A stretch of DNA of 64,000 bases, taken from a virus. Its lineage: Duplodnaviria > Caudoviricetes. The stretch is taken from IMG/VR virus record IMGVR_UViG_3300028833_000066. One strand, 5' to 3'. Made by a program: the position numbers and the translations under genes. The notes below the pieces were generated by a model. It did not search any database, was not told the DNA's origin, and was given only the letters and a program-made list of their open reading frames with translations. Shown here piece by piece: positions 15,944 to 28,239 of the stretch (the first letter of the stretch is position 1; every line of letters begins with the position of its first letter).

Positions 15944-17182
15944 TTAAACGTGATACTTTAGAAGAAAACTATTGCTTACAGCTTTAAAAGACTTAGAACC
16001 ATCAATAGAGCGGAATACAATACCTTCACGAGGCAAATTATCCAAACAAGATTTGCCTTCTGCATAAGCAAGAATAGCATCTACATTTTCAAATTGATTA
16101 ATTTTCATTTTACGATTAAGTACAGGTACGCATTCAATTCCATATGGATCTAGAATATCAATCATTTCAAGAGTTCCTACACGACCGCGAGATGAGAAAA
16201 TTAGGTTAAATGCTAGAAAATCATGCTCACCGCAGAGAGAGTAATCTCGCTGCTGAATGCCGTCGCCAAAAGTTTCGCCTTGAATAGTAATCCATTCTTC
16301 ATTAGGATAAGCCGCCATCAAATTAGATAGCACTTTGAACATGTCATATTGCTTAGCCATTTCCCAATATACATTGGTATCATAATAGCATTCTTTGCTT
16401 TCTTCTCCAAAGCATACATTACGGGAACAAACATAGAAAGATTTGCGCCCAAATTTGCCACGCTTCATAGAGAAAGTAGTGCTAGTTCCATCAATCTTCT
16501 CGGTGGCAATCCAGTCACCATCATCATTTAGAATCCAAGGCATATTTTGCACTCGTTCCTCATCAGTCTTTTTTACCCAAGCCGGCCAGCCATTTTTCTT
16601 ATCCTTCTTTTTACCGAAGAAGAAGAACATTACTTTGCGGCCAAAATTACGTTTCATTATCCACTTAGCCCAAGATTTCTTGAAGATTTCAGGATGACGA
16701 GCGGCCATTTTTTTATACTTATCTACAGTAGGAGCTTTACGCTGGTTATCCTCTTCATCAGCGTAAGTAATACCAAGCTGCTTGGTTAGAAAACGAGATT
16801 CATTTTCTATATTATGATTGTGCCCTTCATTATCTACGATATAAGGAGTATTATATCCTTCAATATGAAGTGCAGGAGCAATGTGCCAACCAAAATCTTC
16901 AGCGTGCATAAGCAAACCCTGTGAAATCGTTTTGCACATCTTCAAGGTTTTAACCTTGTAATTACGCTTTTCAAGAAATGCAAAGCACTCCTTATCAGAG
17001 GGTACGCGAGAGTCAATTTCAAAATAAATCGCGGGATCGCCAACTTTAAATTGGCCTTTCTGTACAATAACTCGCCATCCACCAACAATAGCATGCTCAA
17101 CCCGATCATATCCGGGGATAGGTTCAATACCGTCAATAATTACCACGTAAGCGAGCTGCCGAATACCATCTTTATCAAGCAT
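15944..17182 (-). CDS. RNA ligase (DRB0094/Rnl2-like, N-terminal OB-like domain)
   Basis: IEPIPGYDRVE, YFEIDS, SQGL, KTDEER, TEKIDGTS, QGE, REGIV, FKAVS motifs. Confidence 0.85.
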   Translation of the reverse strand: MLDKDGIRQLAYVVIIDGIEPIPGYDRVEHAIVGGWRVIVQKGQFKVGDPAIYFEIDSRVPSDKECFAFLEKRNYKVKTLKMCKTISQGLLMHAEDFGWHIAPALHIEGYNTPYIVDNEGHNHNIENESRFLTKQLGITYADEEDNQRKAPTVDKYKKMAARHPEIFKKSWAKWIMKRNFGRKVMFFFFGKKKDKKNGWPAWVKKTDEERVQNMPWILNDDGDWIATEKIDGTSTTFSMKRGKFGRKSFYVCSRNVCFGEESKECYYDTNVYWEMAKQYDMFKVLSNLMAAYPNEEWITIQGETFGDGIQQRDYSLCGEHDFLAFNLIFSSRGRVGTLEMIDILDPYGIECVPVLNRKMKINQFENVDAILAYAEGKSCLDNLPREGIVFRSIDGSKSFKAVSNSFLLKYHV

Positions 17183-17229
17183 TTATATCACCCTTTCTTG
17201 TTATATTATACTTTAATTTTTATAATAAG

Positions 17230-17439
17230 TCAAACATATATTCTTTTATAACTCCAACCTTCTATATCATCATCCCATACGAAGAAAATATGCCGTTTCC
17301 AATCTAATCCTTCGCCGATAACGATGTAACCACTCTGCATCGGTTCACAATATTCAATACGTTTAAGTAGATGACAATCTAGTAAATAATCTGCGGCTTT
17401 ATCTCTTAGATAATCCTTATATTCGTTACTCATTACCAC
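17230..17439 (-). CDS. hypothetical protein
   Basis: ORF track; operon packing. Confidence 0.55.
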   Translation of the reverse strand: MVMSNEYKDYLRDKAADYLLDCHLLKRIEYCEPMQSGYIVIGEGLDWKRHIFFVWDDDIEGWSYKRIYV

Positions 17440-17699
17440 AAATCCTCACTATATAATTCACTAGTTACTAATTTAAAATCTGATACTTGACGGCATCGTT
17501 TAGCTTCTTTCATGGCGTCTAAACGACTCATATATTCATCATGCTCATTTAAGAAACCTTGTCCTAATTCTTTAAAATCTTTGATAGTGTATCCAAAATC
17601 ATGTAAAATTTGAAAAGCATCACAATGTCGATGGCATGGGATAATAATTTCTTTTTGCTGTTTATTATCAAAGATTTTAACCGCTGCTTTTGTTACCAT
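17433..17699 (-). CDS. hypothetical phage protein (RH...QGF...SEDLW family)
   Basis: Recurrent small phage protein motif. Confidence 0.65.
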   Translation of the reverse strand: MVTKAAVKIFDNKQQKEIIIPCHRHCDAFQILHDFGYTIKDFKELGQGFLNEHDEYMSRLDAMKEAKRCRQVSDFKLVTSELYSEDLW

Positions 17700-17928
17700 C
17701 TGGAATCTTAGCCTCCGAACTCATTTGATAATGAAAGAACTCAGTATGACTTCCAACATCATAATGCCGCCAACCATCACTATCCCAAGTGCGAGTATAA
17801 TAACTCTTGTAATTATGTTCATCAAGAAACTTCTTGATAACAATAGCAACATCAATCTTGTTGGCACAATCAGCGATAGGACGCCATATACCACGACTAT
17901 TCTCAAAATACAGAGTCATATTCATCAT
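17677..17928 (-). CDS. hypothetical phage protein (DVGSHTEFF)
   Basis: ORF track; operon packing. Confidence 0.6.
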   Translation of the reverse strand: MMNMTLYFENSRGIWRPIADCANKIDVAIVIKKFLDEHNYKSYYTRTWDSDGWRHYDVGSHTEFFHYQMSSEAKIPDGNKSSG

Positions 17929-18776
17929 CCTTTCATCTTACAGTAATAAACAACAGTCTGTTTTACATCGTTGTATTCTTTGTGTTCTTTGACTTTCATA
18001 CGCATTACACACTTAAAGCCAACTTCAAGATTCTTGGAAGCAGTAATCCAAACATATTCATTACCATCGCTGTCCTCCATAATATGGACGCGACTTTCGC
18101 CGAAGCGACCATCAACAGGAACGTTCTTTTTAATGGTTACTTCACGTTCAAGCCAATCACCTACTTCGCCCTGATATTCACTCTTACTCAGATCATCAAG
18201 CAGTTCATGAACGATTTTGCGAACCTCAGCTTCATCCCGCATAGTAAGGTCTTCTGGGTCGTCGGAATTGTGAATATCTTCCCACTTGAGGACAATAGGA
18301 GTAATTTCAGCGGGAAGATTAACAATTTCAAGCTTAGAAGGGCAGAACCAGCCGAACAGAAGGTTGAACCGAGCACGGCAGGGATTGGTTTCGTGAGCCC
18401 AATCATTAAGAATGGTGCTATCACCCTTGAAAAGAGTGATGAAACCAGCCTCACCAAAACCAAAGGCGTTGCGAGCGGCAAACTTTACACGCCGTTCTTC
18501 AACTTTTACTGCTTTGGCCGCAGCACGTTTTTCAGCCGCACGATCAAGAGCTTCACGCTGCTTGTCGGTATACCAACGGACTTCCTTGATTTCATAGCCG
18601 CGGCCGCCGCAAGCAAAGCAACGAGTACCGTCCATTGGGTTATAGGAGTAATGACCGGAGCCGCCGCATCGAGGACACAGACCTTTAACCCGCACATAAA
18701 GCTTTTTAGCATCGCCCTCGTGAGTGTAAGGCTCACCCATAATTTCCATATTCTCATAAGATTTAGCGACCGCCAT
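17925..18776 (-). CDS. hypothetical protein with DnaJ-like Zn finger and C-terminal OB-fold-like region
   Basis: CPRCGGSG and CFACGGRG repeats. Confidence 0.7.
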   Translation of the reverse strand: MAVAKSYENMEIMGEPYTHEGDAKKLYVRVKGLCPRCGGSGHYSYNPMDGTRCFACGGRGYEIKEVRWYTDKQREALDRAAEKRAAAKAVKVEERRVKFAARNAFGFGEAGFITLFKGDSTILNDWAHETNPCRARFNLLFGWFCPSKLEIVNLPAEITPIVLKWEDIHNSDDPEDLTMRDEAEVRKIVHELLDDLSKSEYQGEVGDWLEREVTIKKNVPVDGRFGESRVHIMEDSDGNEYVWITASKNLEVGFKCVMRMKVKEHKEYNDVKQTVVYYCKMKG

Positions 18777-18854
18777 TTTATAATCTCCCCTTTCCTCTTT
18801 ACATATATATTATACTATAAATTTAAAAAAAGTCAAGAATTTCTTCTTGACTTT

Positions 18855-19451
18855 TTAGGAGGTGAAATTTTTATGATGGTCATTATTTAACATAACCGGT
18901 AATTGACCTAATTGGTTCCAACGATTATGAATATCTACAATAATTGTATCTATATTTACAGGATAACAATTATGTGAATCTAAACCAACATGATAAATAA
19001 AGGGATTGTCTGGAAATAACCAATTGGAGGTTTGATGAGTGTGCCCATGTAATGAAATGATATGTTGAGAAAAATGTTTATCATCAAAATTAGCAGTAAG
19101 AACTGGGTAGTGGCAACAAAAAAATTTTAGTTTGCCGAACTTTATAAGTTCGCTGGTTTGTTTAATATTAGTTACCTTCCCAGTTGCGTAGATGTCGCTA
19201 AGTTTGTTATCTGTATCGTGATTGCCTTGAATTAAATGGATAGTCCCATTAAGTCGTTTGAGAATATTAACATCATAATTTCCCATTAATACGTCGCCCA
19301 GATGATAAACAATGTCATTTTCTTTAACCACTTCATTCCATCGTTCTACTAGCGCTTCATTCATTTCGTCTGCGGAAGTAAAACTGCGAGGTTCGTAAAG
19401 GAATGATTGTTCATGAAAGAAATGTGTATCACTAGTGAAGAAAATATTCAT
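18855..19451 (-). CDS. calcineurin-like metallophosphoesterase
   Basis: SDTHF, HLGD, GNHD, HYP, HGHTH motifs. Confidence 0.9.
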   Translation of the reverse strand: MNIFFTSDTHFFHEQSFLYEPRSFTSADEMNEALVERWNEVVKENDIVYHLGDVLMGNYDVNILKRLNGTIHLIQGNHDTDNKLSDIYATGKVTNIKQTSELIKFGKLKFFCCHYPVLTANFDDKHFSQHIISLHGHTHQTSNWLFPDNPFIYHVGLDSHNCYPVNIDTIIVDIHNRWNQLGQLPVMLNNDHHKNFTS

Positions 19452-19933
19452 TTTGGTTCACCATTAATCCACCAAACACCAACGGCTCGGGGATCTTCCA
19501 GTTTATACGCATCATTTACTGGCGGACAAAATTTATCATACATTTCTTTCACAATTTTTTCTGGCACACGAGCGCGGCCAGTGCGTTTATTATTACGATA
19601 GAGGCACGTCTGAAGAGAAGGAGAACATACTACATAAACAATGCGATAATCAGTAATATACTTATCAATAGCATTTGTAAGCTTCTTACGTGACCATGTA
19701 TTAAGATGAGTAGCATCTGCTACTACCGTATCAAAATAACGTAAATGATGCACCAAAGTATTTACAAATTCTTTAAATACCTCCGGTTCATGGTCAAAAT
19801 AATTATCATCATCATCAAGCATCATAAAGCGAATATTATCACGGGATACAGTGACATCGGCATGAAGAAAATTATGAGCAAAATAAGTTTTTCCAGAGCC
19901 AGGAATACCGCACATGATATATAGAGTAGACAT
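19448..19933 (-). CDS. AAA_33/polynucleotide-kinase-like P-loop kinase
   Basis: CGIPGSGKT, SRDNIR, DATHL, RNNKR motifs. Confidence 0.85.
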   Translation of the reverse strand: MSTLYIMCGIPGSGKTYFAHNFLHADVTVSRDNIRFMMLDDDDNYFDHEPEVFKEFVNTLVHHLRYFDTVVADATHLNTWSRKKLTNAIDKYITDYRIVYVVCSPSLQTCLYRNNKRTGRARVPEKIVKEMYDKFCPPVNDAYKLEDPRAVGVWWINGEPK

Positions 19934-20748
19934 TATATTCTCCTTAAAATAAATTGAGCATGGGTATGGTCTGTGGTAGGTAAGATAATATCTTTCCACT
20001 TTTCCGCGTAATATGGTAATAGATAATGAGTTTCAAATAAAATTTGATAATAAGGACCAGTTAATTGGAACAAATCAAACAAAGTCCATGAGAAATAATC
20101 TTCTTTCAACTCTCGCTCCCAATCATTATCTTTCCATTGATATTTCATTAAAAAATGAAGAAATCCTTTTTTCGTGAGAATTGAAGTATCATTGGCTGTT
20201 TCAAATTCTTCAATATATTGTTCATCAATATTGAATTTTTTAATAATGTCAGTCATACTTTTATAAGTAAACTTACAGTCTGGGCCATCAAAATACATAT
20301 CACGAATGGTAATGTATTTAGGTTTAAGCTCAGTAATGAGTTGCTTAATTGTTTCCTTTCCTTCAGGTGAAGAAGAAAATACTTCATGCAGTACGCAAGA
20401 AAAATTAATACAAATCTCATAATTACAAAATGTATACTTAGCCATACGAAGCATATCAGTGAATGAATCTTCAGTAAATTCAGAGGTACGATGTGTGCGG
20501 AAAAATTTAATATTGTTATGTTTAAGCAAATTTTCATTATGAGCTTTCCACGCCATATCAATTAATTCATCGTTAATATCAAAACCCCAAAATTCAATTT
20601 CAGGAAACATAACAGAGAGTGTTCGGATCATTGCTCCATCTGCGCAGCCAAAATCAATTACACATTTCGCGCCAATAATCTTATCCATGAAAAACGCTTT
20701 GTCTCACATTGATTTTGCCATTTCTTGAGTATATTTATTCAGATCCAT
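19933..20748 (-). CDS. class I SAM-dependent methyltransferase with an internal TGA near the N-terminus
   Basis: IDFGCADG motif; RBS plus ATG at 20748 gives MDLNKYTQEMAKSM(TGA)DKAFFMDKI. Confidence 0.7.
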
Positions 20749-21879: not shown

Positions 21880-22515
21880 ATACTCAGGCCACACTCGGGT
21901 GGTCTGTACTTAGACTATTTACCTTCGGCCTTGCCGCTCAAACATTCCCACCGCTCGCGTCCTCAATAGTCCTAGGTAGATAAACATCTACTCATTATAA
22001 TATCAATAGGATTTGTTTTGCCGCGTACGATCGGCTGGCCGAGTATTAAGTCTAATAGCCGCTCAAGACTCCTATTGATTTTTAATAAAGGCTCAAAGTA
22101 CTTACTTCTTCGTTCGTGAAGAGGCCATTAGGCGAGCCTTTGTATGCCCCGAAGGTACGCTTGCTCGTCAGCAGAGGCGTCGGCAGCTCATATATTGTGG
22201 CGTAAAACCCCTAACTAGCCATCATCGCGTCCAGCTGGACCACATGTTTTCTGCCTTGAACCCGTGCTTTCAGGTAGGCAAGGATTATAATCTTGTTTAG
22301 GGAACATCCCATGGTCAAGAGAAACCATAGATGGAGAATCATAATCTAGAAGACAGTACCCTTACGGCGTGCTGTTGATTCTCCTTCTGGTGGACCCGGG
22401 GCATTTCACCCAGCCCATAGACGGTTTTTAGACTCGCTGGTCATGGCTTACCGAGGTACTGACGGCCGATCGCCCTCTGTCGCGCCAAGACTGTGCTCAT
22501 TAAACACAACCCTAA

Positions 22516-22589
22516 TGGAGCGCCATAACAGACTTGAACTGTCACCGACTGCTTGGAAGGCAGCCGTGCTACCATTACACCAATGGCGC
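22516..22589 (-). tRNA. trnG: tRNA-Gly(UCC)
   Basis: gctgc-CTTCCAA-gcagt; U73-CCA. Confidence 0.92.
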
Positions 22590-22662
22590 CGGCGTGGCTT
22601 CACGTCACCACAACGACACATGGGTTCTTGCGCTGGCTAACCTCTTTTGTTCTAAAAGCCAC

Positions 22663-22749
22663 TGGTGCCCTCGGTGAGATTTGCACTCACGTTGTATCAT
22701 TGTAGTAGTTTTTGAGACTACCCCGTCTCACTAGCTGCGGCACAAGGGC
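22663..22749 (-). tRNA. trnL: tRNA-Leu(CAA)
   Basis: gtagt-CTCAAAA-actac; long variable arm; CCA. Confidence 0.85.
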
Positions 22750-22794
22750 ATAATGCGGCGGAAAGGAGACGCCGCGTAGAAAAAAGAAAAATAG

Positions 22795-23205
22795 TGGTGC
22801 GGGTAGCCGGACTTGAACCGGCACGCCCAGAGGGCAACAGATTTTCTTACTACTCTATGTTACCATAGCCGCTTTCGCGTTGTAGTCTGGGCTATGTCTT
22901 CACCTTATCTTACGACTTAGGTGGCTGGTATATAGTCTCTACACATTTATAAATATGCGACGTGCCGAGGTACTGCCCCTCTATTTTTGTATTACTTACT
23001 TACATATACCTATCTGCAGTTTATATGTTTTCAGAGATAAGTTATTATCTGCTATCTTATACTAGACACGCCATATTTAATTTAGCTCGGCGTTATCCCA
23101 TAAGGACTTTCACCGAATTAGCCAGCATTCACTCAGAAAGTTTCCTATTCTGGTGCTCTTTGTTTTACAAAAGTCTGTGGCGTCTGCCTATTCCGCCATA
23201 CCCGC
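22795..23205 (-). tRNA. trnL: tRNA-Leu(UAA) split by a group I intron (exon 1 23171-23205, exon 2 22795-22845)
   Basis: Joined exons give acaga-CTT|AAAA-tctgt, Leu-type D-loop, variable arm and CCA. Confidence 0.9.
22846..23170 (-). mobile_element. group I intron (IC3-like, 325 nt) in tRNA-Leu(UAA)
   Basis: Exon CUU pairs with IGS GAG as in cyanobacterial Leu introns; core ctaattcggtgaaa, gccgagctaaa, gtagagacta, gacatagcccagac; terminal G. Confidence 0.85.
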
Positions 23206-23225
23206 ATATACGGCTTTCGCCGCAA

Positions 23226-23432
23226 TTACTCTTCAGTCAGTCCTTCAATAGCTGCCTCAGCCCATACAACATCTTCCCACTTTTCAATGGTGACTTCATA
23301 TACGTTCTTTGCGCCGTAATAATCGCGTACTTTATTTACTGCTTTACCCCAAGACTTTGCGGCAACAAGACCAGTTTCATCTAGCACTTTATCTTCAACA
23401 TCATCCCAATAATGAACCTTATACTTAAACAT
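23226..23432 (-). CDS. hypothetical protein
   Basis: ORF track; RBS upstream. Confidence 0.6.
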   Translation of the reverse strand: MFKYKVHYWDDVEDKVLDETGLVAAKSWGKAVNKVRDYYGAKNVYEVTIEKWEDVVWAEAAIEGLTEE

Positions 23433-23593
23433 AATAATCCTCCAAATTAAATCCCTCTTGAACTGCCCATTCTATGATACGATCATAATTTTCTTGCTCC
23501 CAGGCTTGTTCTACGTCAGCCATAGCGGCAATAATGAAGCCAAACGGAGCAGTACCACAGTAATTTACTAGGTCTTTAAATAATCGTTCTACA

Positions 23594-23809
23594 TCAATAG
23601 CAGTCGTCATAATTATCCTCGCCAAATACTTTATCAACGCTACTTTCAGTGTAACCAAGGCAAAGCGCAAAAGCTCGGCACATTCGCTGAAGAGCCTCAA
23701 GGCTCATATCTTGGTCTGCCTCAAAACTTAGGCTAATAGCGTTACGATAGCTCCTCTCATCAGGATACAGATTAAATTCAATACGATTCTTAATAGCTTG
23801 CGGTGCCAT
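23594..23809 (-). CDS. hypothetical protein
   Basis: ORF track; follows promoter at about 23839-23866. Confidence 0.6.
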   Translation of the reverse strand: MAPQAIKNRIEFNLYPDERSYRNAISLSFEADQDMSLEALQRMCRAFALCLGYTESSVDKVFGEDNYDDCY

Positions 23810-23840
23810 ATTGAAGCTCCTTTCCTTTTCTATATTTATA

Positions 23841-24245
23841 TTATACTACAGTTTTAGCAAAAGTCAAATCTTTAATTTTAAAAAAATCATCACCGAGGTA
23901 GATTCGTTTAATGCCGTCCATAGCCACATAATGACTGAAACACTCTCCATAATCTACAAGAGCCGCCGGCACGATGATGATACATGGTACTTTTCGTGCC
24001 TTCATATCATCCTTGCTATATTCGCTATTTCCATAATTATGCCAGTCATCTTGCGGTTCAAGTACGAGTGAGTCAAATGAAATAGCTACATCCCAAATAT
24101 CAGTAATATATTCGGCGTATACAGTACCCGCATTATGCTCATAAGGGCAATCATTCCAATCATCGCCACACCAATCTTTAAGATTATCATCACCAAGATA
24201 GAAACGGATGACATTACCTTTGCGTGCGAAGTCAATAATTTTCAT
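23841..24245 (-). CDS. hypothetical phage protein (GDDWNDxPYEHNAG)
   Basis: Conserved phage motif. Confidence 0.7.
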   Translation of the reverse strand: MKIIDFARKGNVIRFYLGDDNLKDWCGDDWNDCPYEHNAGTVYAEYITDIWDVAISFDSLVLEPQDDWHNYGNSEYSKDDMKARKVPCIIIVPAALVDYGECFSHYVAMDGIKRIYLGDDFFKIKDLTFAKTVV

Positions 24246-24248
24246 AAA

Positions 24249-24584
24249 TTAAATCTCCTTTACTCCATAATGTGTCAGCAGTTGCCGCATATTTGCGGCT
24301 CCTACAGGGTTCATAGAATGAATATGAAAGGCGATAACATGAATATTATTCTCAATCACATAGCGGCAAATATCATAGCCGGTACGCTCAATGTCACTTT
24401 CCTCATCAAAGCCGAGGTCGTGGTCAAGGTCAAGAATAAATATGCTGTCTGGATGGTTTTGAAAGAAATCAATTGCTTCCGCATAACTGCGGACAATATG
24501 AGGCTCATATTGACTTTGGACAGTTAAGCTACGGTAAAATTTATCGTCAGTACGAATATCATCCACATACAGGAAGTAATCCAT
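24249..24584 (-). CDS. cyclic-phosphate-processing receiver domain protein
   Basis: LYVDDIR, LDHDLG, TGYD, IHSMNPVG motifs. Confidence 0.8.
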   Translation of the reverse strand: MDYFLYVDDIRTDDKFYRSLTVQSQYEPHIVRSYAEAIDFFQNHPDSIFILDLDHDLGFDEESDIERTGYDICRYVIENNIHVIAFHIHSMNPVGAANMRQLLTHYGVKEI

Positions 24585-24632
24585 CTCTTCCTCTCTCCTT
24601 TCATATATATTATACTATAATTTTTGAAAAAG

Positions 24633-25082
24633 TCAAATATGCCATTCTTCAATTTTTACATCATGACTTCTTAACCATTCTTGTACCGCCCATCGTTCGC
24701 TACAAGGATTGTCATATTTTTCAAAGAAAATAAAAGCAAAATCAAAATCTTTTCTGTCAGGGAAATCTTCAAGTAAACGTGCCCGCAAATCAAGTAAATG
24801 TTCTAAAAATGAAGAAAAATCTATTTGATCTAATTGTTTTCGATATTCTTGTAAAAATAAACAATTATGTGGATGCTTCGGATTACATTTTCCGTTACAT
24901 AGTCCATCGCAAGATTTTCCTGGCCGTAGAGGCGGGCAACGTAAACTAATTACGCCATTTTTATCTACACCGCCGACAGAGTACCATTTCGGTTCCCAAA
25001 CTACTGTTGAAAGTGCTACAAGATTATTAGGAAAGTTCTTAACCATGGCCCAATATGATGTATATAATTTCATATATTCCAA
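24633..25082 (-). CDS. DUF488-like protein
   Basis: LYTSYW N-terminus; Y..QL; FFEK...CSER C-terminus. Confidence 0.55.
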   Translation of the reverse strand: MEYMKLYTSYWAMVKNFPNNLVALSTVVWEPKWYSVGGVDKNGVISLRCPPLRPGKSCDGLCNGKCNPKHPHNCLFLQEYRKQLDQIDFSSFLEHLLDLRARLLEDFPDRKDFDFAFIFFEKYDNPCSERWAVQEWLRSHDVKIEEWHI

Positions 25083-25369
25083 AGCTCCAATGATTTAGGT
25101 TCTTCCTTTTCAACATAGCCACCAGTTTTCCAATCGCCTTCCCATTCAAAATACCACCTATTTGGACAATAAGGAAATGTGCCAAATGAAGTTTCAATTA
25201 CCATAGCGGCTGGATAACTACCTTCATAAATATCACACCAGTTTTCTTTCACGCACTTAATAGCGTCATCCTTATTTTCATAGTAGGCTGGTGTGTCATG
25301 ATTTGGCGGAAAACTGTCATCTTCTTTTGGTAAATTACAGAATGTGATTACTCGATAAAATTTATTCAT
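25070..25369 (-). CDS. hypothetical protein
   Basis: ORF track; RBS upstream. Confidence 0.6.
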   Translation of the reverse strand: MNKFYRVITFCNLPKEDDSFPPNHDTPAYYENKDDAIKCVKENWCDIYEGSYPAAMVIETSFGTFPYCPNRWYFEWEGDWKTGGYVEKEEPKSLELWNI

Positions 25370-25468
25370 ATAGCCTCCAATGAAAAAATGCGCCGGAAGA
25401 GTTGCGGATATTACTCGGCCTCTTTCTGAAAGGGCTCTTCCACCTAAAAGGTTCCCAACGGCGCTAAA

Positions 25469-25544
25469 TGGTCTGGGTGGTCAGACTCGAACTGACGACC
25501 TGATGCTCCCAAGGCACCCGCGCTGCCAACTGCGCTACACCCAG
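25469..25544 (-). tRNA. trnP: tRNA-Pro(UGG)
   Basis: C1-G72; ggtgc-CTTGGGA-gcatc; CCA. Confidence 0.92.
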
Positions 25545-25726
25545 ATACAAGAAGCGTATTTACGCTTCTAAATACGACTGTGTTATTACACCAAATTACT
25601 CTTACCTTTTATCCACCGCACATCATACTTATAGGACAATTCCTGTAGCCCATAATACATTTCGCACGAATGGAGGCATGTAAACTCTTTAGCTTATGGC
25701 TACTTTCAAGCCTACAGTGTCGCGAG

Positions 25727-26113
25727 CTAGGGCGCTGGGACTCGAACCCAGACTACCTCCTTCAGAGGGATATAACGGTTTTCTTACTACTCCATATTAC
25801 TATGGCCGCCATAATGCGTTGTAGTCTGGACTATGTTTTTACCTTGCCATAATGGTTTAGGTATGTCCTATATAGTCTCTACACGTTTATAAATAATTGG
25901 CTGTTTATCAAACTCCACTTAGCTACAGCGTTATACGAACTCGCCACTATCAAATTGGCTTCCACAGTCTGTCGTAGCACCAATTATTTAATTTAGCTCG
26001 GCGTTGTCCTAGTAGGATATTCGCCGAATTAGGGACAATTCACACTAGAACTTTCGTATCTAGGTGTCCAATTATTTTAAGAGACCGGTGTTCTGCCATT
26101 GAACTACGCCCCA
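25727..26113 (-). tRNA. amber suppressor tRNA(CUA), Gln-type identity, split by a group I intron (exon 1 26080-26113, exon 2 25727-25782)
   Basis: Joined exons give cggt-CTCT|AAA-accg (anticodon CUA); U1-A72 and G73; D-arm gttc/gaac; T-arm ctggg-TTCGAGT-cccag. Confidence 0.85.
25783..26079 (-). mobile_element. group I intron (IC3-like, 297 nt) in suppressor tRNA
   Basis: Clear paralogue of the Leu intron (ctaattcggcgaa, acgccgagctaaattaaata, gtgtagagactatata, catagtccagactacaacgc, gagtagtaag); IGS GGA pairs with exon UCU. Confidence 0.85.
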
Positions 26114-26145
26114 TTAAAGTGAGGTTTCCCTCACTTTCTATATAT

Positions 26146-26174
26146 ATTATATCAAATTTTTTATAGAAAGTCAA
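26146..26174 (-). promoter_or_regulatory. sigma70-type promoter TTGACT-N17-TATAAT directly upstream of the suppressor tRNA
   Basis: Consensus hexamers with extended -10 TG; leader hairpin at 26116-26137. Confidence 0.75.
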
Positions 26175-26671
26175 ATAAAAGCCTTATCTAAATTCATATA
26201 TTCTTCTGGATTACCATTGCCGCATTCATCACACCAAGGAGCAATCCATCCACGACTTAATTTAGTAGCGGGTTTGCCACATTTAATACAAGTACGAGAA
26301 CTTATAACTTCATACTTATCTACAATAGCACGAGTTCTTTCAGTACTGAAATTATCATACCATCTTAGATAGCCATACTTTTCCTTAATTTGATCAACAC
26401 GATATTCATCAAGTAATTTTTCGCCGCCTTCATCAAGTAAAGCTTGCTTAATTTCAGCGCACATTTGTTCGCCAAACGCAATACGCCATCCATCTGGCAT
26501 ATCATCAAGTTCAGTATATTCATAATCCCATTCTGGCGGCATTTCATCTGGGCTATCGGGCCAAAAGCCTTTTTCACCGCAATTGATGCGTTTGCCGCTG
26601 AAGCGATTAAATGGAATTAGAAATGGATAAGTATCGCATAAACGCTTGTTTTCTTCACGATTAATTTCCAT
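26171..26671 (-). CDS. hypothetical phage protein (QIKEKYG.LR.Y, C-terminal Zn ribbon)
   Basis: Start reassigned to MEINREE after RBS aaggagga; the longer ORF overlaps a tRNA. Confidence 0.75.
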   Translation of the reverse strand: MEINREENKRLCDTYPFLIPFNRFSGKRINCGEKGFWPDSPDEMPPEWDYEYTELDDMPDGWRIAFGEQMCAEIKQALLDEGGEKLLDEYRVDQIKEKYGYLRWYDNFSTERTRAIVDKYEVISSRTCIKCGKPATKLSRGWIAPWCDECGNGNPEEYMNLDKAFI

Positions 26672-26691
26672 TAGTATATCCTCCTTAAAAG

Positions 26692-26880
26692 AGCCGCCGA
26701 TAGGACTTGAACCTACAACCTGCGCATTACTGGAGCTGAGTGTGAGTAACGAACTCACATATCTTCGCCTAATTAATTCGTCAATTAATTAGTTCTCATG
26801 CGGTCTTTTCCCTGTGATTCGGGTGTTTTACCTTAAACTAACTCAGCAAGTGCGCTGCTCTACCATTGAGCCACGACGGC
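26692..26880 (-). tRNA. trnT: tRNA-Thr(UGU) split in the anticodon by a 117-nt tRNA-like insert (exon 1 26848-26880, exon 2 26692-26730)
   Basis: Joined exons give gcgca-CTT|GTAA-tgcgc with canonical acceptor, D and T arms. Confidence 0.85.
26731..26847 (-). ncRNA. tRNA-like RNA nested inside tRNA-Thr(UGU)
   Basis: GCTGAGT/ACTCAGC acceptor stem, U73-CCA, D-arm GTTT-AAGGTA-AAAC, T-arm GTGAG-TTCGTTA-CTCAC; anticodon arm replaced. Confidence 0.8.
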
Positions 26881-26885
26881 GTAAA

Positions 26886-26956
26886 AGCCTCCTATTGGAA
26901 TCGAACCAATCTTCACGCCTTACGAAAGCGTTGTTCTGCCTATAAACTAAAGAGGC
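26886..26956 (-). tRNA. trnT: tRNA-Thr(CGU)
   Basis: acgct-TTCGTAA-ggcgt. Confidence 0.85.
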
Positions 26957-27120
26957 AATGCGGATGAGGATTTGCACCTCATATGACATACGTCTTTTCG
27001 CTCTTCACTTTACTAATATTCCTACCTATTAGTGGCTGTCAGCGATTTTTAATCTCGGCCATGAATTAAGTTTTTAGCGTAGTCTCACGACGCAGCGTTT
27101 ACCTATTCCGCCACCGCATT
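26957..27120 (-). ncRNA. tRNA-like RNA with expanded anticodon domain
   Basis: aatgcgg/ccgcatt stem; Leu-like D-loop ggcggaataggtaaacgc; T-arm tgagg-TGCAAAT-cctca; about 75-nt insert closed by gcgtc/gacgt. Confidence 0.7.
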
Positions 27121-27127
27121 TAATTAA

Positions 27128-27667
27128 TTACGGCCACTCTCCAAGCGGCATACCAAGGCCAGCACGTTCAACATTAGTGTTGAAGAATACGCCAGCAGTA
27201 GCAGGACCAGTTAAAAGCTCATCAGCAATAGTCTCATATAAAGTGCTGATAATGCCGTGGCAATCGTTTAGGTTGTCAGCCGCGAACTGTACTACGCAGT
27301 TGTTGAATACTACATAAGTAGTGTCGAACCATTGATAACCTTCTTCAACAGGGCATACAGAATAAGCATAAGCGGGATTGCCCTTGAAAGCTACATCAAA
27401 TAGCTCGACCTTGCTGGTGAAAGCACGATTGCTTGGCGTGCCATCAACAACAACCTTTAGGCCAACATTGCCAAAGTTAATTTCTTCTGGAAGAATCTGA
27501 AGTAGTGCTGCTACCTTATCGCCATTATTACAGGATAGAACAACAGTAGGATGAGAACCAGAGAAATCACAATTAAAAGCGATCTGGGGGTCTCCATCAA
27601 ATAGGGCTTCTAGCTTTCTAATAGCAATAGTCCAAGGCGGTAGAATCTTTAGTCTAGCATTGCTCAT
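27128..27667 (-). CDS. hypothetical phage protein
   Basis: ORF track; RBS upstream. Confidence 0.7.
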   Translation of the reverse strand: MSNARLKILPPWTIAIRKLEALFDGDPQIAFNCDFSGSHPTVVLSCNNGDKVAALLQILPEEINFGNVGLKVVVDGTPSNRAFTSKVELFDVAFKGNPAYAYSVCPVEEGYQWFDTTYVVFNNCVVQFAADNLNDCHGIISTLYETIADELLTGPATAGVFFNTNVERAGLGMPLGEWP

Positions 27668-27687
27668 AATTTTATACCTCTTTTATT

Positions 27688-28239
27688 TTATTTTTCTAAA
27701 TAATTAGAAATGTCAATCATACCATTTTCAATTTCCCAATGATGATTTGGGCATAAACCAATTAAATTGTTATCATTATTAATTTCATCAATAGTTGCGC
27801 TGTCAGGAAAAGTAGAAATTCCTTTTATATGATGAACTTCTATATGTTTATTGTATCCACAGACTGCACAAGCTGCATTTGGATGATTCTTTAAATATTG
27901 TAATCTAGATAATTCTCGTATTCGACTATTAACCTGATAAGAACGCAATTCTTTTAGTTCACCATATGTTTTATTTTTCCAATCAACATTGGTTGGATTA
28001 CATTCTTCGCAGTATTTTCTTCTATAAAATAGAGCATATCCTTCACCAATTAGTTTCCCGCATTTCTGACAGAATACCTATTTTTTAGGACGCTGACGAT
28101 TATTGTATGTAGCAGCGCAGCTATGATTACAAAATTTTTTCCTTTTAACACTGCTAACTGATTCATTCGCTTGACAGAAAATTGGTTGTTTGCAGTTTAA
28201 ACATAAATTGGGATTTTGATTATATTCTTCGCGTGTCAT
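27688..28239 (-). CDS. HNH endonuclease with Zn-ribbon N-terminus (code 15, TAG at 28078)
   Basis: CLNC..KFCNHSC(TAG)..CQKC..CAVCGY..EVHHIK..NLIGLCPNHH; two supplied ORFs join in frame. Confidence 0.85.

Follow-up and report, generated by a model that had tools for sequence, protein, structure and literature searches.

How can a tRNA gene serve a phage when its anticodon is divided by what looks like a second tRNA, and how would such an insert be taken out? The question is raised by a tRNA-Thr(UGU) gene on the minus strand (26880-26692) of the window, the whole 64-kb stretch of viral DNA that we analysed. A 117-nt insert divides its anticodon between positions 34 and 35. An earlier note, made from the letters of the sequence, had proposed that the insert is a new class of intron, shaped as a tRNA from G1 to CCA, which is removed by tRNA maturation nucleases and sealed by the phage RNA ligase. 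Its account of the host gene was correct. ARAGORN and Rfam agree that a tRNA-Thr is split inside the anticodon, between CTT and GTAA: the RF00005 match spans the whole 189 nt (50.1 bits), and when the insert is taken out ARAGORN calls a canonical tRNA-Thr(UGU) of 72 nt on the joined exons, so that precise excision gives back the UGU anticodon. At default settings ARAGORN misses the split gene.

The window comes from a large phage genome and contains a tRNA island, in which 22 intact tRNAs accompany ROOL and drum RNAs. An intact UGU tRNA gene is absent within the 64 kb, and it is on these 64 kb that the sole-copy status of the split gene rests here. ACA makes up 166 of the 601 Thr codons in the window.

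Two tRNAs could have been brought together by faulty assembly or by chance, and it speaks for such an artefact that tRNA clusters are repeat-rich. However, a second IMG/VR contig (L003) contains the identical 189 nt, contigs from RNA libraries of two samples from two studies cross the insert with 0 differences (26309-27012 and 26707-26857), and there are dozens of independent homologues. These observations rule out the artefact that the earlier note had allowed for, and we give it practically no credence. The RNA runs that contain this stretch are sheep-rumen metatranscriptomes. The unspliced form is present in RNA-library contigs, where DNA carry-over is possible. Leaving aside runs X5 and X6, whose share was 0.05, we mapped four of these runs (two samples, contigs only) onto window positions 22100-27700, and no spliced RNA of the split tRNA-Thr was seen with certainty in the metatranscriptome contigs. 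One joint, from 26730 to 26847, was found in X1 and X3 (one sample); it showed 85% likeness, was one base off and had 28 letters on its short side. A phage tRNA-Thr without an intron has a match to the window of exactly 28 letters at that joint. Because the match length is the same as that of the intron-less relative's tRNA, we did not count the joint either way.

Table 1. Features of the split tRNA-Thr(UGU) gene and candidate processing enzymes, in window coordinates.
Feature	Position	Strand	Remarks
5' exon of tRNA-Thr(UGU), positions 1-34 (33 nt), ending GCGCA-CTT (C32 U33 U34)	26848..26880	-	
Putative intron, tRNA-shaped, 117 nt, flush from acceptor base 1 to N73-CCA	26731..26847	-	register from C-starting homologues
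3' exon of tRNA-Thr(UGU), positions 35-73 (39 nt), starting GTAA-TGCGC; without encoded CCA	26692..26730	-	
Inner acceptor stem, 5' strand, pairs with 26735-26741	26841..26847	-	6/7 pairs vary on both sides, 8 homologues
Inner D-arm, 4-bp stem GTTT/AAAC, GG in loop	26825..26838	-	invariant in subfamily; D-stem sequences varied class-wide
Conserved motif CCGAATC-x-CAGG-x-A-x-AAGAC, where the anticodon arm would begin	26803..26824	-	largely invariant in 8 homologues with differing stems
Variable 10-bp hairpin CTAATTAATT, GACG loop; dispensable	26769..26792	-	covaries in L006, L013, L134; nearly deleted in L274
Inner T-arm, 5 bp GTGAG/CTCAC (5/5), 7-nt loop	26742..26758	-	3/5 pairs vary on both sides
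Inner acceptor 3' strand, discriminator U (U73) and CCA	26731..26741	-	
Rnl5/DRB0094-like ATP-dependent RNA ligase, candidate sealing enzyme	15944..17182	-	phrog_968, E 5.7e-66
Polynucleotide-kinase-like protein (AAA_33), candidate end-healing enzyme	19448..19999	-	
Metallophosphoesterase adjoining the kinase, candidate 3'-end healing enzyme	18855..19451	-	

The inner RNA has the acceptor, D and T arms of a tRNA together with NCCA. Every part that had been described for it was found (7-bp acceptor, U8A9, 4-bp D-arm with GG, 5-bp T-arm, 10-bp hairpin and CCA; Table 1), and the acceptor strands GCTGAGT/ACTCAGC form 7/7 pairs, followed by U8 and A9. Other hairpins replace the anticodon arm with its 7-nt loop, and the window insert alone receives no tRNA call from ARAGORN or Rfam. 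The inserts of L002, L004 and L005 alone score 33-34 bits as tRNA. The window insert folds with a z-score of -4.36, and 0 of 200 shuffled sequences were equally stable. When eight homologues of the subfamily were compared, 100% of the acceptor, D and T cells were paired and both sides had changed in 9 of the 16 pairs, a result reached by 0 of 500 shuffles; slid registers were 34-50% paired. The last pair of the T-stem is G-C in all 42 non-redundant inserts that we collected. The inner T-loops depart from the consensus in close relatives, which is a point against the reading favoured below. A strict pattern for the conserved motif of Table 1 matches only inside these inserts. As judged from the sequences, the insert is real, conserved and under structural selection.

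The boundary of the window insert is ambiguous by one base, with a G on both sides, and ARAGORN takes the other register. Inserts that start with C (L094, L134, L274 and L275) place the site at 34/35 and make the last base the A of CCA; two of these four were found by patterns requiring neither G nor CCA. Thus the homologues uphold the 34/35 register, whereas the G1 of the earlier note is not universal (33 inserts start with G and 9 with C, among 42). The homologues were also checked for imprecise boundaries and decaying exons, and showed precise boundaries, intact exons and a covarying shell.

How widespread are such inserts? A detector of split tRNAs that is blind to insert content was run on 311 fetched loci and returned 73 spliced tRNAs that are valid to ARAGORN. 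The search for split tRNAs with an insert from base 1 to CCA, which the earlier note had recommended, was thus productive: 58 of the 73 have a flush shell of acceptor and T-arm, 42 of them non-redundant, with inserts of 44-129 nt. The site lies at 34/35 in 22 of the 42, at 35/36 in 15 and at 36/37 in five. Ten anticodon types are represented, namely Thr(UGU), Lys(UUU), Gln(UUG), Glu(UUC), Leu(UAA), Ile(UAU), Asn(GUU), Gly(UCC) and Pro(UGG), to which a later find added Asp(GUC). In 42/42 spliced loops position 33 is U and position 37 a purine, both of which the detector required. The smallest inserts consist of nothing but a minihelix and a linker of 9 nt, and the middle of the window insert is about 70 nt. 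Across the class the inner anticodon arm is lost or replaced and the shell is retained.

Some of these figures depend on how the inserts were gathered. Our first search pattern required G...CCA and is hence silent on the conservation of the ends; chance matches made up 21 of its 32 metagenome matches. Patterns free of this requirement, together with unselected neighbours, took its place. Most loci were fetched with a pattern requiring CCA, and the 15 inserts matching no such pattern were tallied separately: 14 have a tail of exactly 4 nt (CCA in 10, CAA in three, CCU in one) and one ends at N73. The discriminator base of the inserts is A in 20, U in 12, G in six and C in two. Class-wide pairing of 99%, against 60% in shuffled sequences, is inflated because inserts were retained only if paired; fairer evidence for pairing comes from the many pair types per position and from the covariation among the eight homologues.

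Additional phages from rumen and gut were found by pattern scans to have this intron type, and the same site also holds inserts with quite different middles. Matches among the INPHARED phages were to the tRNA exons only, with none to the window insert. Intact alleles with the exact CACTT-GTAATG junction occur in other phages, and one of them (L402) has 6/72 differences from the window's spliced product. By sequence comparison, the presence of the insert varies between lineages. In nine near-complete genomes, 18/18 inserts interrupt the sole gene for that anticodon, and a complete 147-kb genome retains the split tRNA-Thr among only three tRNAs.

Three 123-nt inserts with middles that look similar by eye (L026:721-843, L214:5169-5291 and L261:7538-7660) lie at differing sites in host tRNAs for Thr, Lys and Gln, a pattern suggestive of movement from one tRNA gene to another. 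In its behaviour the class resembles a mobile element or one gained repeatedly, and we read this behaviour to mean that inserts are tolerated because they are removable. The relative that carries L003 is 93-99% identical to the window in shared blocks and has Trp, His, Tyr and Lys(CUU) tRNAs for which ARAGORN makes no call in the window. Thus the tRNA island gains and loses genes fast, with the split tRNA-Thr staying identical. The only non-viral record with an insert is L305:6659-6860, on a contig of a Ca. Avigastranaerophilus MAG. The same locus holds an intact tRNA-Thr(UGU), and neither Rnl1 nor Rnl5 was found in the bin; L305 may be what remains of a prophage, or a phage contig assigned to the wrong bin. 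In variants without CCA the last base is the discriminator, where RNase Z canonically cuts (L006:3485-3539 and G003 139461-139601), and genome G003 has four inserts that include both tail types.

Could the insert be a dead end? A tRNA may have been mis-ligated into an anticodon break and copied into DNA, or a selfish element may have landed there, leaving pseudogenes kept by drift. As an origin this would account for the exact base-1-to-CCA ends and for the link with repair ligases described below, and the presence of inserts does differ between relatives, also in the data of Devoto et al. (2019). However, across diverged lineages the inner stems have undergone compensatory changes and the outer stems are intact, and the shell has outlived the inner anticodon arm. 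We regard dead-end insertion as highly improbable. An origin by mis-ligation would be compatible with present-day splicing; only the idea that the inserts are non-functional today is disfavoured.

The RNA might instead function without ever being spliced. The whole nested RNA, or a released inner tRNA mimic, would then divert anticodon nucleases, or sensors of uncharged tRNA, as a decoy, and the outer tRNA would be its scaffold. It is in keeping with this idea that the RNA libraries show with certainty only the unspliced form, that the middle motif is conserved beyond the needs of base pairing, and that most insert-hosting tRNAs belong to the U34 class, a frequent target of anticodon nucleases. 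Yet removal of the insert gives a canonical 7-nt loop at three different sites and in ten anticodon types, for which there would be no selection if the RNA stayed unspliced. The sole-copy status of the interrupted genes also argues against a decoy, and the inner acceptor and discriminator bases vary freely, so that no consistent aminoacyl identity is offered. A decoy is therefore quite unlikely in our estimate, and the insert is most likely spliced.

If the insert is spliced, does it belong to a known type of intron? Group I introns of tRNAs, such as that of tRNA-Leu(UAA), resemble it in that they interrupt the anticodon loop and their precise removal restores the tRNA, and two of them lie in the same window. 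In contrast to them, the inserts have no catalytic core, end in A rather than G and are as short as 44 nt. The earlier note was right that a group I or group II core is missing: Rfam (RF00028 P3-P7 for group I) gave no match over 26731-26847 at E<=5, in a scan that detected the Leu(UAA) intron. We rejected group I because the terminal G is absent (the last base is A in 39/42 and G in 0/42, in the register fixed by the C-starting inserts). Group II was rejected because there is no Rfam match to domains V/VI and the inserts are 44-129 nt, against the several hundred nucleotides required. No bulge-helix-bulge was found either, as had also been claimed: the window insert forms 2/4 pairs of the central helix, 0/42 inserts reach the full 4 bp, and RtcB occurs in 0/41 virus records. 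Archaeal and eukaryotic introns, which are removed by EndA/TSEN with RtcB or Trl1, share with our inferred route a protein-catalysed cut and ligation in the anticodon loop. They differ in that the sites here lie within the anticodon and not at 37/38, and in that the recognition element is inside the intron. Finally, tmRNA and Y RNA (YrlA) were dismissed, with no Rfam or ARAGORN match over the insert.

We lean towards the reading that the insert is a real intron that acts as a tRNA mimic, with a 5' cut by RNase P, a nuclease cut after CCA and sealing by a phage ligase. RNase P leaves a 3'-OH upstream of its cut, and RNase Z-type enzymes leave a 5'-phosphate downstream; a U at -1 and NCCA are determinants of RNase P. 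Sequence determinants of an RNase P and RNase Z substrate are present. At the base before the insert (-1), 37/42 have U and 41/42 have a pyrimidine, where random placement within the anticodon would be expected to give 29 and 31 (p = 0.002 for U, a value that ignores kinship). The insert ends are the two positions at which tRNA maturation cuts, and the resulting ends would be the 3'-OH and 5'-phosphate pair that Rnl1 and Rnl5 join (PMC5397189) and RtcB does not.

We propose the following route. In the precursor, the outer anticodon stem would enclose the whole inner tRNA shell. C32-U33-U34 of the outer tRNA would serve as the 5' leader of the inner tRNA, and G35-U36-A37-A38 as its 3' trailer. 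Host RNase P would read the acceptor/T stack and NCCA and cut at inner base 1, which would leave a 3'-OH on the 5' exon. An endonuclease would then cut directly after CCA, or after N73 in variants that end there; this is the weakest step. The enzyme could be a host RNase Z/BN-like nuclease that leaves a 5'-phosphate, or another enzyme whose product is healed by the phage kinase. Finally, the ATP-dependent RNA ligase of the phage would join U34 to G35, and the UGU anticodon would be back. The middle of the insert would be free cargo. The anatomy, the precise boundaries, the covariation, the sole-copy status and the co-occurrence with a ligase support an intron; from them we infer the three reactions.

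Which enzyme could make the 3' cut? RNase Z of T. maritima cleaves just after CCA, but for B. subtilis-type RNase Z the CCA is an antideterminant, and precursors that contain it are trimmed there by exonucleases (PMC7479834). Trimming of that style would destroy the 3' exon and counts against our route. Cuts downstream of CCA that depend on RNase P in E. coli map at a distance of two to seven bases (PMC4176162). What makes the 3' cut the weak step is that CCA represses the B. subtilis enzyme and that the E. coli cuts are off by those two to seven bases. An RNase Z-like metallo-beta-lactamase family is present in only 4/41 records and is not common to the carriers. Among the annotated protein families shared by carriers there is no phage nuclease, and several shared families were left unannotated. 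A conserved protein of 112 aa (35632-35970) was considered as a dedicated nuclease and rejected, since its sequence looks like a coiled coil and has no nuclease match.

The candidate ligase has an adenylyltransferase domain (PF09414) and an N-terminal OB-fold, the layout expected of Rnl5 (DRB0094). It scores 117 bits against TIGR02306, below the cut-off of 151, and E 7e-31 against Naegleria Rnl structures. Among virus records with an insert, 28/29 encode a ligase for 5'-phosphate and 3'-OH ends (21 Rnl5-like, seven T4 Rnl1-like), compared with 1/12 comparison records. Our initial tally was of 28 carriers (20 Rnl5-like and seven Rnl1-like) against 2/13 tRNA-bearing comparison records; one ligase-bearing comparison record (G037) proved to carry an insert and was moved to the carriers. 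The sole carrier record with neither ligase is 42% complete. The association (p = 4e-8) ignores kinship and is confounded by it, since carriers have core genes in common, and the controls were screened for inserts only in the fetched loci. Additionally, genome G043 has the ligase, yet its tRNA-Thr is intact and it shows no long tRNA match. Given this kinship and G043, the ligase looks necessary for the inserts rather than specific to them.

Two observations count against the proposed route at the sealing step. Ligases of the Rnl5 family (DraRnl and NgrRnl) have been characterised as sealing nicks in duplexes and not breaks in loops (PMC5397189, PMC4408790), a preference that is unfavourable to loop sealing by the 15944-17182 ligase. 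L305, with its insert, intact copy and no ligase found in the bin, likewise tells against the route.

The ligase gene lies in a cluster that resembles RNA repair in content (15944-20688, minus strand), with a metallophosphoesterase, a Pnk-like kinase and a methyltransferase that has no match to Hen1 models. Relatives additionally have RlaP and DUF2828. These enzymes bear on an alternative in which the insert is spliced but a dedicated endonuclease, of the phage or resembling a host anticodon nuclease, reads the shell and leaves a cyclic phosphate and a 5'-OH; kinase and phosphoesterase would then heal the ends and the ligase would seal them, as in tRNA repair by T4. A homologue of the kinase is present in the window and in 9/9 carrier genomes compared, RlaP and phosphoesterases are found in most of the latter, and the CCA problem of RNase Z is sidestepped. 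Against this, the shared families that were annotated offer no conserved candidate nuclease, the match of the boundaries to RNase P and 3' processing and the U(-1) bias would be coincidence, and G043 has the repair kit without an insert. We consider a dedicated nuclease unlikely.

Another alternative dispenses with the ligase. After a 5' cut by RNase P, the 3'-OH of U34 would attack the phosphate after CCA, catalysed by the RNA of RNase P or by the insert, and the inner RNA would be freed with a CCA-OH end. This would account for a CCA flush at the 3' splice site even though CCA inhibits many RNase Zs, and it would fit L305. However, the 44-nt inserts are too small for a catalytic core, nearly all carrier virus records (28/29) have a ligase, and variants without CCA exist. 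We know of no precedent for joining by transesterification from a 3'-OH freed by RNase P, and find this chemistry very unlikely.

Thus the part of the earlier proposal that concerned splicing by maturation nucleases and a ligase has fared unevenly. Boundaries, exons, shell covariation, sole-copy status, the ligase and the U(-1) bias favour it, while the 3' nuclease and the chemistry of Rnl5 do not.

Is such an intron new? Devoto et al. (2019) described 'enigmatic' tRNA introns in Lak megaphages, one of them in a tRNA-Thr(UGU) and predicted to encode a tRNA, and gave no mechanism (PMC6784885, Fig. 4, Table S6); the same remark has been repeated for jumbo phages (PMC13037316). Like the inserts studied here, the Lak introns, of about 80-140 nt, are anticodon-loop inserts with an inner tRNA-like body, present in some relatives and absent from others. 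In contrast, by eye from Table S6, their site is 3' of the anticodon (after 36 or 37), they have a hairpin leader of about 30 nt and they have no CCA. The window insert has a shell flush at both ends, an NCCA end and an anticodon split at 34/35. The claim of a new class therefore stands only in part: tRNA-encoding introns of phage tRNA-Thr(UGU) had been reported in 2019 (PMC6784885), whereas we found no earlier description of the flush base-1-to-CCA design, or of a splicing mechanism, in the literature we searched, which covered few subscription journals. We regard the flush inserts as a variant of these reported, unexplained phage introns, and put an even chance on a new splicing mechanism. 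The view that tRNA-mimic introns, released by maturation nucleases and sealed by a ligase, form a separate mechanistic class beside group I, group II and endonuclease/BHB introns could in our opinion go either way.

Two known systems contain elements of the proposed route. In tRNA punctuation, as in mitochondrial polycistrons and mascRNA/MALAT1, a tRNA-shaped element within a longer RNA marks where RNase P and RNase Z cut. The flanks are released there, whereas here they would be rejoined, which would make the element an intron. T4 Pnk/Rnl1 repair and the Rnl5 ligases act through enzymes that the carriers also encode, and the break lies in the anticodon loop; however, their known role is the repair of nuclease damage or of duplex nicks and not programmed splicing (PMC5397189, PMC4408790).

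If the insert is spliced in the way we propose, tRNA splicing would have a route that does without a ribozyme core and without a dedicated splicing endonuclease. This would answer how the 'enigmatic' introns of 2019 are removed and would give the Rnl5 and Rnl1 ligases of phages a programmed substrate. It would also mean that standard annotation overlooks real tRNA genes in large phages. Such an intron could carry cargo and would make the supply of U34 tRNAs depend on a phage enzyme. The earlier note had thought of timing the tRNA supply or of shielding the anticodon from host nucleases; once spliced, the tRNA would be exposed to anticodon nucleases again. As a portable signal of 44 nt for cutting and rejoining, it could serve as a part in RNA engineering.

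Other structured RNAs lie near the split gene. The tRNA-Leu(UAA) gene (22798-23205, minus strand) contains a 325-nt group I intron, whose Rfam match (22866-23180) scores 44 bits, below the gathering threshold of 50. A group I-like intron of 297 nt (25783-26079) interrupts a tRNA gene with a long variable arm (25726-26112, minus strand). Spliced at the likely site, this tRNA would have a CUA anticodon and resemble an amber suppressor; the relatives G001 and G002 have intact CUA tRNAs. Full recoding is not indicated, since TAG still ends 7/29 long ORFs of the window. A structured RNA about 365 nt long (22148-22512, minus strand) matches the Rfam model cow-rumen-3 in its 5' part (72 bits, below gathering). 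RNA contigs cover it at a depth of 42-437, compared with about 5-20 for nearby ORFs, and one of them ends at an adapter at 22148. Perhaps no more than a third of the real RNA is represented in the cow-rumen-3 model. The ROOL and drum RNAs lie inside the tRNA island, at 30287-30871 and 31266-31359 (minus strand).
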